DNA of 64,000 bases from Deinococcota bacterium (GTDB taxonomy: Bacteria; Deinococcota; Deinococci; Deinococcales; Thermaceae), in the NCBI GenBank assembly GCA_041695225.1, contig JBGFRI010000003.1:64001-128000 (forward strand), read 5' to 3'. The position numbers were made by a program. Below are positions 18,001 to 21,000 of the stretch, one piece after another. How positions within the stretch are numbered: the first letter of the stretch is position 1; every line of letters starts with the position of its first letter.

Positions 18001-21000
18001 GGGCACGAACCGCAACCCGGCCGCTTTTGCCGCCCGCCAGCGCCGCTCGCCAGAAACGATATAGCAGCGGTTGTTCACCACCGAGATCACCAGTGGGGTC
18101 AGGACGCCCACATCGCGGATGCTCTCCTCCAGCTCCCGCATCAGAACGGGATCAAAAGTCTTGCGGGGCTGGTGAGGGTGGGGCTCGAGGTCATTCACAT
18201 TCATGGGAAAAATCTTGCGGTCGTTCTCCTGGGCGTACAGGTCAGGGATGGCACGTACAAACTCCAGCTCAGGGTTGTCAGTTTTATCAGGCATAACCTT
18301 CCTCCAACGCAGAGTTTAGCAACTATGAGATTCGATTGTCTACTATCACAACCGGGTATATAATTAACCCATGAAGCTATCCACCCTCTCCAAAACCACC
18401 GGCATCTCCGAACGCACCATCAACCGCGCCGTCAAACAGCTGGCCCAGAGTGACGGCCTGGCCCTGAGCAATGGGGAGGTATCCGGGCCGGACCTCCCTT
18501 ACTTGCTGGCTACCCTGGACGAGCTGAAGGGGATGCCAGCCTCCGCACGGCTGCCGGTAGTAGAGCGCTTCCGGGAGTTGAAGCAGCGGGGTGGCGGCCA
18601 GACTCCTGCCCCCTCCGGGGAAACAGGCCAGGCCGGGCCTGGTGGTGAGCAGCAGGTACAGCAGGTGCTGGCAGAGCTGCGCCAGGCGGTTGCGGGCCTC
18701 GAGAAAAACCAGCGCAGCCAGCAGGCTGATCTGCACAAGCGGCTGGTGGCGCTCGAGGAGCGGTTTGCCCGGGTGAATAAAGCCATGACCGCTATTGAGC
18801 TGATGCTGGAGGATGAGGATGTGGACAATAACCTCTATAACATCCTGGTTGGGCATATCGGGGCCTTCAACCACCGGCTGACCCGGAATGAGCAATACTG
18901 GAGTGAGCTAGGGCGGGGGTTGACCGCGGCCTACGTGAAGCTGGCGGATGACAAGCGGGAGATCAAGAACTTGATCAAAGATTTGATCGCACTCCTGAGC
19001 CCCAAGTAGAGCCTGGCTGGCCCGGAAAGTTTAGACCGGCGTGTCACGGCGCGTTGGTCTAATTTCGTCTGGGGAGGCAGAGCAGTTGGGAGGAGTGGGG
19101 GTATGTCGGAAGCGCTCGAGCGACAAAATGACCAACGTGTCATGACAGGTTGGTCAAACTCTCTGGAAAAAAAGGTTTGAGTTTGGGGGGTGGTTGGATG
19201 CCCTGGAGAGGGGCAGGCCGCCCTCCCCGGCATCGCCAGCTGAACCTGTCCCGCTATGGCTGCCTCTGTCGTTGTCCCGGTGGTGGCTGCTGTGGTCGCA
19301 GTCTTTCCAGCTGTTGCCGCGGCTGTTCTGGTTGAAAATGCTGGGCGCCATTTCGCAGCACCTCCTTCGCCTCCTCCCACCCTACTCTTTCCCTCTCTCA
19401 TACTGTCTCATCAAGTGGTGAGCAAAAACGACCTCTTTTTCCCGTCCCAGACGGCAGTATTCTCCAAACGGGCCACACCCATCCAGCCCCATCACCCCGC
19501 CCGCTTCCGCATCACCCAGGGATCCCCCATACCCGCAGAATGTCCGCACCAGATATATGAAGTCTTGGGTCTGGGATCGCGGTACCATTTCTTACACCCA
19601 TACCGCTGAGACGAGGCACAAGTATCAGGACTTTTTGCACCACATTCCGCACCGGCCCTCGCCTTCAAAGCGGATCAGGGTGACATAGCCCTGGCGCTTA
19701 CCTTCGACGCCTTCTTCTTCAAACTGCCAGGCGCCACGGGAATACTTGGTGACCTCGGGCAGGCCATTACGGGCGCTCAAGAAGCGTTTCCGCCAGTGGT
19801 AGCCAAAGGCGGTAACTGTCCCGTTGGTATCCTGTGTGGCTCCCAGAAACGCCCAGTCAAAGCAGTCGTGGCAGGCTTTAGGTAGTACAAAACCACCAGG
19901 GGGCGGGCCAGCCGAACGGAAGCCTTTCTTCCCCCAGATCCGGAGGGTCTCGAGCCAGTTGTCTTCAGTAGTCTCGACCTCAATGATATGTCCTAGCGGG
20001 CTAAACAGCTCGATGCGCACAGCATCAGTTTAGCACCACTCATCCAGTTTGACAGATGCGTTGCGATCTGTTAATCTTGTGTTATGGTACGACGACGTAG
20101 AGGATCTAAAACCCCGGCCCGTACCCTGGCAGCAGCTAAGGCCCGCTCCCATATCACCAGCCGGGCCCCACTGCCGGGCCATATCCGGCGTCAGCTCTGG
20201 GTCTATGCGCCGGAGAAGGCAGTGTTGTGGTTTCGGAGTCTGGGCTCGAGGGAGATGGGTCGGATTATTGCCCGGTTGTATCAAGAGCGGGAGGACGCAA
20301 AATGAACCGTGAAGCAACAACGTTACATCGCCAGGCCATGGAGGCTGCCGATAAAGCCTTTTTAGCCAAGTTGCGCGGTGATTTGGAGGTAGCCCAGGAG
20401 TTTGCCGCGAAAGCCTTTGAGTTGGAAAAGCGAGCCGCTGAGCAGCTTATTAATAGTCAGCCTGGGGCTGAACCATCAAGATCAGTGTTGTTGCGTAGTG
20501 CAGCAGCACTGGCCTTGGCTATTGCAAACTACCAGGAAGCTCGTCGCCTGGTTCATATTGCACTTGAGGGTAATCCACCCGCTGAGATTGCCGTTGAGCT
20601 GGGTGATCTCAAAGAAGAGATAGACCGACATTGTTTCTAGGAACCGCTGTGAACTACCCCCACCCAGCCCTGCCAGCAGTGATAACGAGCCTGCGTGAAC
20701 TCGAGCAGGACCGCGCCCTGGTGGTAGACCTGAGTAAGGTAATCTACCAGGAGCAGCCCAGGCACCCGGCAGTGCCAATAACGGTAAGCCAGGTCTTCGA
20801 GCTTCTAGCAAAGCACGGCTACCACCGGCTGCCCATGCCCTCGGCTCTGATGTTCGGCTCGGTAGCCGCCGCCCTGGCTACCTGGCGGCTCACCAAAGGA
20901 GCTTACCTATTCGATGCCAGCATCTGGGAGCAGATCCGGGAGACGCCTTTGACGAAGCTACCCCAGGCCCTGCTCCAGCGCCTGCCCGAGCCAGCGCCGC

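Follow-up and report, generated by a model that had tools for sequence, protein, structure and literature searches.

DdrB is the textbook 'Deinococcus-only' invention behind extreme radiation resistance, and passages from the literature of 2010 to 2020 label it Deinococcus-specific (PMC2879517, PMC6300522, PMC7314969). Chromosomal Deinococcus DdrB belongs to the RDR regulon and combines a tail bearing an acidic SSB-like tip with an RDRM operator upstream of the gene. According to passages of PMC7314969, plasmid establishment during transformation of D. radiodurans needs DdrB, via strand annealing. Other Deinococcus copies are themselves plasmid-borne family genes, annotated 'single-stranded DNA-binding protein' (D. 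gobiensis, D. proteolyticus, D. aetherius, D. grandis, D. ficus, D. wulumuqiensis and D. sp. KNUC1210), and many of them end in ...AAD (15/77 rows, all on 8-515 kb contigs). Outside the family, passages of PMC11541004 describe how SSB and anti-defence genes cluster in the leading regions of plasmids; these leading-region SSBs (F, ColIb-P9 ssb) bind ssDNA and are proposed here as a functional analogy to ddrB, although their OB fold is unrelated. The DdrB of phage P1 (Dar anti-restriction system, 'DdrB-like ParB domain') is an unrelated protein with the name alone in common, and PMC5512222 was set aside as an earlier account of DdrB on mobile elements, as its DdrB is the phage P1 protein.

The gene described here lies in a 64,000-nucleotide stretch (the window) of plasmid C8 of a Deinococcota bacterium, a thermophile related to Deinococcus, and has neither the SSB-like tail nor the upstream RDRM operator of the chromosomal Deinococcus genes. 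The features of the locus and plasmid that enter the comparison are as follows, in window positions unless C8 is named.

17157-17299, copy A of a 143-nt direct repeat
17263..18294, minus strand, ParB_N-only protein of 343 aa (Pfam ParB_N, E 2.1e-19)
18371..19009, plus strand, protein of 212 aa, weak HTH at the N-terminus (HTH_36, E 3.1e-4, under cut-off)
19386-19528, copy B of the repeat, directly downstream of ddrB and ~99% identical to copy A (98.6-99%)
19625..20020, minus strand, ddrB-like gene, an intact 131-aa ORF with a GTG start
20027..20032, minus strand, -10-like hexamer TAAACT, 6 nt upstream of the GTG start of ddrB, read from the sequence
20631..21680, plus strand, AcrVA2/FinQ-family protein of 349 aa, in an operon divergent from ddrB
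58743-60992, coupling protein (T4CP) with T4SS-DNA_transf, TraG-D_C and TrwB domains
C8 53243-54013, two-OB SSB
C8 131903-134509, VirB4-like ATPase of 868 aa, P-loop_TraG above the Pfam cut-off

A DdrB family gene on a circular plasmid

By sequence and predicted fold, the window ORF is a true, albeit unusual, member of the DdrB family. It matches PF12747 at 50.0 bits (cut-off 25, E 3.3e-13), with protein residues 3-120 on profile positions 2-131 of 132; the genome-wide survey's note, which had called this protein (g00305, 131 aa) a DdrB homologue on plasmid C8, gave 49.8 bits, and the PDB matches and the fold agree with its assignment. The PDB sequence matches are DdrB chains (4exw_A, E 2.3e-11; 4hqb_A, E 7.5e-9), and in a Foldseek search with the AF2 model (pLDDT 91.8, pTM 0.83) the matches listed at E <= 0.001 are all DdrB chains (TMq 0.70-0.89), while the first match beyond them has an E value of only 0.22. 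The D. radiodurans (DR_0070) and D. geothermalis proteins (4hqb, 4noe, 4exw) have the same fold at 30-32% identity (TM 0.79-0.89), and their FDW, Y-[KR]-R-R and KYSRGA motifs are kept, as is the equivalent of R85. Across 106 alignment rows of the family, the window protein has each of the invariant residues G60, R79 and F118 and all those conserved in at least 90% of rows (G10, G30, G33, G43, P47, F54, D55, S94, R95, G96, Y112, L115 and G120). No NCBIfam model matches the window protein, its Oceanithermus homologue or proteins of the D. radiodurans type, and the Atlas gave no usable match for DdrB.

C8 is a 150-kb circular plasmid whose first and last 121 bases are identical. It encodes Rep3_N and Rep3_C replication domains, ParA and an HTH-containing ParB, together with an ArdC-N gene; ddrB lies ~4 kb from parAB, ~7 kb from rep and 26-30 kb from the SSB and ArdC-N genes. 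The survey's description of the element as conjugative is borne out in part, by the coupling protein and the VirB4-like ATPase (AAA_10, E 1.7e-8, 34.4 bits against a cut-off of 27.5, no single domain passing alone), but no relaxase was found in a Pfam scan of 153 of the 154 called C8 ORFs, and PF03432 and PF08751 have no match genome-wide. T4CP homologues share a contig with ddrB in three of the five other carriers (G172:C8, G190:C9 and G148:C2), i.e. in 4/6 carrier contigs with C8 included, whereas the window Rep3 used as query found no match in the five carrier genomes.

Distribution and phylogeny of DdrB

The DdrB family is wider than Deinococcus and partly plasmid-borne. A tblastn search of 72,556 plasmid records returned 10 matches, eight from Deinococcus and two others, namely Allomeiothermus silvanus pMESIL01 (70.0% identity) and Oceanithermus profundus pOCEPR01 (38.9%). 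The identities in the survey's note and its seven records covering at least 80% of the query are reproduced, but its totals of nine records and seven from Deinococcus were each one too low. A homologue at G190:C9:18917-19300 is 70% identical (68.7% by blastp), in line with the 68% previously given for this plasmid-like contig of another Meiothermus. In a PF12747 scan of the phylum 137/364 genomes are positive, this one included, rather than the 135/365 counted before; the earlier figure of 1/25 for the genus (g1) stands, while that for the family (f1) becomes 5/67 instead of 4/67. Other families vary from 121/125 (f2) through 9/19 (f3) and 1/23 (f4) to 0/128 (f5).

A profile search found 140 clusters at 50% identity, and one of them, from a Vulcanimicrobiota MAG, takes the family beyond the phylum; in the member listing for 10 cluster representatives D. 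ficus is the sole name. Single-query searches found no match in genome contigs (P0028, P0053, P0158), metagenome contigs (P0053) or viral contigs (P0028), and phage were equally negative, with no tblastn match of P0028 in 50,697 phage records and 0/27 proteins in PHROGs. The label 'Deinococcus-specific' is therefore outdated, given the homologues on Thermaceae and Oceanithermus plasmids or plasmid-like contigs and the Vulcanimicrobiota cluster; the survey had already found the label, as worded in the passages of PMC6300522, at odds with these plasmid homologues. Its own portrayal of ddrB as a gene of the whole phylum fits those plasmids, but falls short of a family that exceeds the phylum.

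In an unrooted tree the Thermaceae and Oceanithermus copies group together, and a split with 97/96 support separates this clade from every Deinococcaceae copy; the branch across this split is long (0.42 + 0.60). The Deinococcus plasmid copies fall on the Deinococcaceae side and are without the cysteine motif described below, and an AU test (p 0.108) does not decide if the plasmid lineages of Thermales and of Deinococcus are one and the same. The suggestion that the chromosomal Deinococcus gene was recruited from plasmids is not upheld, because the tree lacks a root and the clade with the chromosomal genes has two Deinococcus plasmid subclades nested in it; for those copies the nesting points in the opposite direction.

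Features of the Thermales-type proteins

The window protein contains four cysteines (Cys50, Cys53, Cys124 and Cys128), arranged as a Cys-x2-Cys pair preceding the FDW motif and a Cys-x3-4-Cys pair at the C-terminus. All four are present in 9/9 Thermales-type alignment rows, in both subclades despite a mere 34-39% identity between them, whereas three of the four columns have cysteine in 0/97 other rows. They probably bind zinc or pair as disulfides, which would stabilise the protein in the heat. The protein stops three residues past Cys128, without the disordered C-terminal tail, and the C-terminal block is confidently modelled (pLDDT 93). The acidic-x-PF tip, found in 29/77 genome-derived rows, occurs in no Thermales-type row, and the clade shares two deletions, of four and three residues. 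The clade-specific cysteines, the loss of the tail and the deletions are new here, and all of them set the window protein apart from the D. radiodurans and D. geothermalis proteins.

Nine residues of D. radiodurans DdrB have alanine mutants with weaker ssDNA binding (PMC3834827). Four are retained, i.e. R83 (as R or K), R85, K102 and K94 (as R), with R85 present in 9/9 Thermales and 97/97 other rows. The remaining five differ, with T in place of R64, a gap at W66, W in place of K108, E in place of R132 and G in place of K135, although the 97 other rows are themselves variable at several of these positions, with tryptophan at W66 in 11 of them and lysine at K135 in eight. Furthermore, E51 at the D. 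radiodurans pentamer-pentamer interface (PMC3834827) is replaced by A, the DdrB domain is near neutral (pI 6.8; 16 K+R against 16 D+E) and tryptophans number five, against 2-3 in Deinococcus copies. Given this divergence of the Thermales clade, with its four cysteines, missing tail and 4/9 DNA-binding residues, we infer rather than assume a function equal to that of D. radiodurans DdrB.

The -10-like hexamer before the GTG suggests that the ddrB mRNA may be leaderless. The promoter scan lists no promoter-like site at 20027..20032, but TAnnnT hexamers stand 6-8 nt before the ddrB start in G190, G169 and G168, where the remaining upstream DNA is not conserved. A pattern built from the sites in Table 4 of PMC1978522, with up to two mismatches allowed, gave no RDRM operator upstream of ddrB; the window holds five matches against 4.3 expected, the nearest at 33129 and none less than 12 kb from ddrB. 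The gene would be transcribed alone, probably leaderless and outside Deinococcus RDRM/DdrO control.

Possible roles of the plasmid-borne protein

The 349-aa neighbour matches AcrVA2 (PDB 7ci1, E 6.2e-11, residues 116-325) with its H-x-R-x-x-H stretch retained, and in the Atlas it scores 0.98 to three AcrVA2 clusters; Pfam has no family for it. Its gene starts ~610 bp from the ddrB start, on the opposite strand, and the ParB_N-only gene is 1.3 kb off, the two being the putative anti-defence neighbours of ddrB. On G190:C9, ddrB and a gene for a 49% homologue of the AcrVA2/FinQ-like protein are 3.6 kb apart, and on G172:C8 a 33% homologue of the ParB_N-only protein adjoins ddrB and a homologue of the 212-aa HTH gene. 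The HTH protein, syntenic with ddrB there, has a 33-38% homologue at L042:8424-9353 and no PDB relative. In A. silvanus and G169 these window neighbours are absent, and ddrB instead stands amid transposase, integrase and cargo genes.

The reading favoured here, held as rather probable, is that the window gene encodes a functional, plasmid-carried DdrB of a Thermales type (tail-less, with a cysteine site, leaderless and RDRM-free). It would be a non-OB-fold ssDNA-binding and strand-annealing protein, perhaps pentameric as in Deinococcus, of a subfamily on large plasmids in which the DdrB fold and the invariant core of the family persist but the disordered partner-binding tail is lost. Most likely it would coat and anneal single-stranded plasmid DNA alongside C8's own two-OB SSB, and may thereby help the plasmid to re-form a duplex circle after ssDNA entry by conjugation or natural transformation, or alternatively to repair breaks. 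The need for DdrB in D. radiodurans plasmid establishment and the clustering of SSB with anti-defence genes in leading regions both count for this reading, as do the invariant residues, the retained R85 and K102, the four cysteines in both subclades, purifying selection, the AcrVA2/FinQ-like and ParB_N-only neighbours, the circular C8 with its T4CP and VirB4-like ATPase, and the T4CP on other carrier contigs. Against it stand the five changed DNA-binding residues, the E51 replacement, the near-neutral charge, the absence of a tail thought to recruit partners, the 26-30 kb between ddrB and the SSB and ArdC-N genes, the lack of a relaxase among the scanned C8 ORFs, and the A. silvanus and G169 copies without the window neighbours.

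A possible but doubtful alternative is that plasmid DdrB is cargo of benefit to the host, serving, like its Deinococcus counterpart, the cell's double-strand-break repair under heat, desiccation or oxidative damage with no plasmid-specific role. DdrB has been characterised as acting in genome repair (passages of PMC6300522 and PMC3834827), its carrier plasmids, at 135-348 kb, are large and rich in cargo, for instance the kdp and ABC transporter genes close to ddrB in pMESIL01, and the genome has a single ddrB copy. Close IrrE/DdrO homologues, moreover, have been reported from Meiothermus, Calidithermus and Oceanithermus, though not from Thermus (PMC8072749), a distribution that DdrB matches (0/32 genomes in genus g5), and an M78 peptidase gene lies on C17. 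A host role is harder to square with the missing RDRM-like operator, the patchy occurrence (6/68 family genomes), the want of any copy on a demonstrably chromosomal contig, the T4CP gene on most carrier contigs, and the anti-defence and ParB_N neighbours.

A broader proposal, equally tentative, sees DdrB as at root a mobile-element annealase. Deinococcus would have taken one or two such genes into its radiation regulon, where they gained an SSB-like tail and an RDRM operator, thermophile plasmids would have arrived at a tail-less form clamped by zinc, and the 140 clusters would mostly be plasmid genes of several phyla. DdrB would then be the plasmid counterpart of the phage Rad52-, RecT- and Erf-type annealases, rebuilding plasmids from incoming ssDNA.

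Less probable still is a repurposed fold, in which annealing is lost and the ring scaffold has taken on other work, for example binding a protein of the host or a different nucleic acid in an anti-defence or regulatory role. The long branch, the adjoining AcrVA2/FinQ-like gene, the lost tail and the five changed residues, with R132 now acidic and the charge near neutral, are compatible with this, but the most conserved positions of the family are kept (R85, K102, the SRG motif and FDW), many of the 'lost' residues are not constant across the 97 other rows either, and the gained aromatics (K108 to W among them) could stack on bases. Decay to a functionless remnant is very unlikely: the Pfam score is low (50 bits, against ~200 bits for Deinococcus copies) and the 143-nt duplication immediately downstream of the gene hints at local rearrangement, but same-length intact ORFs occur in six genomes and six metagenome clusters, the fold is confident, and dN/dS is 0.05-0.28 in the nine computable of 10 Thermaceae pairs (pN 0.08-0.26 against pS 0.50-0.81), i.e. 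the gene is under purifying selection.

The main gain is a corrected distribution and a new DdrB variant, with no new mechanism shown: a thermophile-plasmid subfamily, about 140 clusters of which at least one lies outside the phylum, plasmid-specific C-terminal signatures and RDRM-less Thermales copies. The question thereby shifts from a Deinococcus invention to the role of the DdrB annealase for mobile DNA, and the 131-aa window protein would offer structural biology and biochemistry a minimal, naturally thermostable DdrB.

The 143-nt repeat has just the two copies in the genome; its candidacy as a structured RNA or ssDNA promoter was dropped, as it has no Rfam match and folds ordinarily (z-score 0.11). 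Elsewhere in the genome, the Rad52_Rad22 protein noted before on C12 was recovered at 92474-92818 (38.7 bits against a cut-off of 20.3); C1 carries another Rad52_Rad22 ORF.

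A Thermales-type DdrB with an apparently remodelled DNA-binding surface

The genome-wide survey's note took the following gene for a DdrB homologue, an identification borne out by its Pfam and PDB matches, its fold and its conserved positions.

19625..20020, minus strand: ddrB-like ORF, 131 codons, GTG start

The product matches PF12747 (DdrB) with E 3.3e-13 and a score of 50 bits, double the curated threshold, across positions 2-131 of the 132-position profile, and the only solved structures matched by sequence are those of DdrB (4exw, E 2.3e-11; 4hqb, E 7.5e-9). AlphaFold2 produced a confident model from a 106-row family alignment (pLDDT 91.8, pTM 0.83); the Foldseek matches listed at E <= 0.001 were DdrB chains only (4noe, 4hqb and 4exw; TMq 0.70-0.89, rmsd about 2-3 Å) and the next match had an E-value of 0.22. 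Furthermore, the protein holds every position that is conserved family-wide in the 106-row alignment. The match is far beyond chance, and the ORF is a real DdrB homologue. Thermaceae ddrB pairs show non-synonymous differences of 0.08-0.26 against synonymous differences of 0.50-0.81, and dN/dS was 0.05-0.28 in the nine computable pairs of ten, a rough estimate with synonymous sites near saturation; ddrB is under purifying selection within the Thermaceae. We conclude that this is a genuine DdrB-family gene, maintained by selection and borne on a plasmid, and that it represents a new variant which lacks the C-terminal tail, carries four cysteines and has no RDRM, the operator of the Deinococcus radiation/desiccation regulon.

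Alanine mutants of nine D. radiodurans DdrB residues are reported to bind ssDNA less well (PMC3834827). With numbering verified on the D. radiodurans-type alignment row, R83, R85 and K102 are retained in the window protein and K94 is R, while R64 is replaced by T, W66 by a gap, K108 by W, R132 by E and K135 by G; at the pentamer-pentamer interface, E51 is replaced by A. R85 is invariant (106/106 rows), and variation at several of the 'lost' positions extends to other family members. The family-defining core is therefore intact, but the DNA-binding surface seen in the crystal is, judging from the alignment, remodelled. Binding of ssDNA by this protein is likely rather than certain. We infer its function from homology and context only.

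Features common to the Thermales-type proteins, i.e. the Thermaceae and Oceanithermus copies, were drawn from two alignments, of 78 and 106 rows. In the former they have two deletions in common, of 4 and 3 residues, and no long C-terminal tail. Four cysteines are common to them: Cys50 and Cys53 form a C-x2-C immediately preceding the FDW motif, and Cys124 and Cys128 lie at the extreme C-terminus. All 9 Thermales-type rows of the 106-row alignment have this pattern; the other 97 have no Cys in three of the four columns and a lone Cys in the fourth in 15 cases. Two subclades with only 34-39% mutual identity both keep the four, which count as a single evolutionary event; in the model the C-terminal block has pLDDT 93. 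The cysteines probably form a zinc site or a disulfide pair, predicted to take the place of the tail.

Elsewhere, an SSB-like acidic-x-PF tip ends 29 of the 77 genome-derived DdrB rows; in the three cases of known contig size these copies are on contigs of 2.1-3.5 Mb. Another 15 of the 77 terminate in ...AAD, which may be a plasmid-specific partner motif; every one of these is on a contig of 8-515 kb. The ...AAD copies (Deinococcaceae loci L052-L082) occur in several tree clades.

Distribution and phylogeny of ddrB

DdrB has been called 'unique to Deinococcus spp.' (PMC2879517, 2010), 'Deinococcus-specific' (PMC6300522, 2018) and 'specific to Deinococcaceae' (PMC7314969, 2020), and the main text of the non-subscription literature on DdrB, as far as it was covered, describes neither Thermaceae or Oceanithermus homologues nor a plasmid association. 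PF12747 was detected in 137 of 364 phylum genomes: 121/125 in f2, 9/19 in f3, 1/23 in f4 (which holds Oceanithermus) and, in addition to the window's genome, 5/67 in f1 (the Thermaceae), with none in the 128 genomes of f5 or the 32 of genus g5 within f1. A tblastn search of 72,556 plasmids with the window protein returned 10 records, namely 8 from Deinococcus, A. silvanus pMESIL01 (70%) and O. profundus pOCEPR01 (39%); depositors annotate the plasmid homologues as 'single-stranded DNA-binding protein'. Relative to the window's copy, the six in f1 show 66-71% identity, bar its own at 99%, and are carried as follows.

Contigs carrying ddrB in the Thermaceae
C8 (window contig): 150 kb, circular
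G190:C9: 140 kb
G172:C8: 156 kb
G168:C2 (pMESIL01): 348 kb
G169:C3: 483 kb
G173: 911-base fragment, matching a cluster named Calidithermus roseus

A coupling-protein homologue lies on ddrB's own contig in G172:C8, G190:C9 and G148:C2; there is none on the ddrB contigs of G168 and G169.

More broadly, a 31-row profile searched against 1.84 billion representatives recovered 140 clusters (50% identity) at E <= 0.001, 74 of them at E <= 1e-30. All 30 representatives tested exceeded the Pfam DdrB cut-off and had no other domain, many being 230-410 aa long. Unnamed metagenome sequences make up most of the clusters, one takes its name from a Candidatus Tyrphobacter MAG of the phylum Vulcanimicrobiota, and 17 credible homologues have been reported from Antarctic soil metagenomes (PMC10140301). 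The survey's claim that DdrB extends beyond Deinococcus, onto Thermaceae and Oceanithermus plasmids, holds and was even too narrow. A central family query against PLSDB gave 11 records, all Deinococcota plasmids; phage records gave no DdrB match and none of 27 family proteins tested matched a PHROG.

A careful, unrooted tree covers 53 genome-derived rows over 144 columns; the 25 rows dropped from the 78-row alignment all belong to the main Deinococcus clade, whose members are near-identical. The 7 Thermales rows split from all 46 f2 and f3 rows (support 97/96); Oceanithermus is sister to the Thermaceae (100/99), among which two g3 copies, one on a contig named Calidithermus roseus, are sister to the remainder. 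The f2/f3 side comprises two deep groups, each with chromosomal genes on 2.1-3.5 Mb contigs, together with an f3 clade and a clade confined to contigs of 8-635 kb. The f2 chromosomal loci divide as L061, L063, L088, L089 and L091 versus L090 and L087, which their Pfam E-values match (about 1e-60 versus about 1e-45), and the f3 and plasmid-only clades are nearer one of these groups.

Two more plasmid subclades (100/99 and 100/100) are nested in an 11-row group with chromosomal genes including G003:C1 (98/86), and the plasmid copy of D. proteolyticus (G052, NC_015162) is sister to its own chromosomal copy in a quick tree (SH-aLRT 96), a pairing left unresolved by the careful tree. Since plasmid copies are so placed, exchange of ddrB between chromosome and plasmid is real, and for the nested copies transfer looks to have run from chromosome to plasmid. 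The survey's note had proposed that the Deinococcus chromosomal gene was recruited from, or exchanged with, plasmids; the exchange stands, and recruitment is not established, as the tree is unrooted and an AU test did not reject joining the Thermales clade to the Deinococcus plasmid-only clade (p 0.108).

The plasmid and the ddrB neighbourhood

The assembly comprises 2.83 Mb in 50 contigs, and the window corresponds to C8:64001-128000. C8 is 150,324 nt long; the same 121-nt sequence opens and closes it, which marks it as circular. A crude GC3-based caller gave 154 ORFs, of which 153 were scanned with Pfam (12 around ddrB, 51 others in the window and 90 on the rest of C8). These encode a Rep3 initiator, ParA, ParB, a type IV coupling protein, a VirB4-like ATPase, an SLT transglycosylase and an ArdC-N protein, as well as type IV pilus genes, type I-E cas genes and a type ISP restriction enzyme. 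C8 is firmly a plasmid and likely conjugative, though the conjugation set found on it is incomplete: no relaxase family was found among the 153 ORFs, and PF03432 and PF08751 have zero matches anywhere in the genome. D. radiodurans DdrB is reported to be required for plasmid establishment via strand annealing (PMC7314969), which is the best precedent for a plasmid carrying ddrB. Besides DdrB there is a large DNA-metabolism set including a two-OB SSB, DnaB, DnaN and UvrD-like and RecD-like helicases; a NurA-like nuclease, an SNase and an RNase T-type exonuclease also belong to it.

DNA-metabolism gene sites
C8 53243..54013: two-OB SSB
window 12200..14116: DNA-metabolism site
window 49800..50678: DNA-metabolism site

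Two Rad52_Rad22-family ORFs occur in the genome (G000:C1:4372-4719, 40.7 bits; G000:C12:92474-92818, 38.7 bits; cut-off 20.3), and the control genome Thermus thermophilus has one too.

A pattern derived from the RDRM sites in Table 4 of PMC1978522 (<=2 mismatches) matched the window 5 times against 4.3 expected, with none near ddrB. DNA upstream of ddrB is unconserved across five Thermaceae loci; a TAnnnT hexamer lies 6-8 nt ahead of the start codon at four of them, a placement that would fit leaderless transcription. The order ParB_N gene, weak-HTH gene, ddrB is kept on G172:C8. In the window the ParB_N and HTH genes are bracketed by a 143-nt direct repeat (99% identical, two copies only in the genome), which matches nothing in Rfam and shows no unusual folding.

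17157..17299: repeat copy A, overlapping the last 37 nt of the ParB_N-only gene
19386..19528: repeat copy B, downstream of ddrB

A divergent operon of four genes lies on the opposite side of ddrB.

20631..21680, plus strand: AcrVA2/FinQ-family protein, 349 aa, second gene of the operon (PDB 7ci1, E 6.2e-11; Atlas score 0.98)

Pfam assigned no family to this protein, which retains the H-x-R-x-x-H stretch reported to be needed for AcrVA2 activity (bioRxiv 10.1101/2022.11.29.518452). On G190:C9, where an SSB and a ParB_N gene are close by, a 49% homologue is located 3.6 kb away from ddrB. Combinations of SSB with anti-defence genes are described as marking plasmid leading regions (PMC11541004) and make the ddrB neighbourhood a candidate for one, although here ddrB adjoins parAB and rep, with SSB and ArdC-N encoded 26-30 kb away on the plasmid.

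The plasmid itself bears type I-E cas genes (Cse1, Cse2, Cas7, Cas6e-like), scattered at ~2.0-2.7 kb and ~59.6-63.1 kb of C8. Further observations in the window are as follows.

6138..7868, minus strand: formyltransferase/enoyl-CoA-hydratase fusion
9788..10441, plus strand: thymidylate kinase
14269..14550: CRISPR-like array, five repeats spaced 60-61 nt
31249..32109, plus strand: Dam-type methylase
32503..33282, minus strand: DUF5131 protein
38254..39204, plus strand: tyrosine recombinase

The fusion, kinase, methylase and DUF5131 protein may form a DNA-modification set. Homologues of the recombinase (60-65%) lie 0.5 kb (G190:C9) and 8 kb (G169:C3) from ddrB, and the Oceanithermus ddrB likewise has a recombinase directly upstream.
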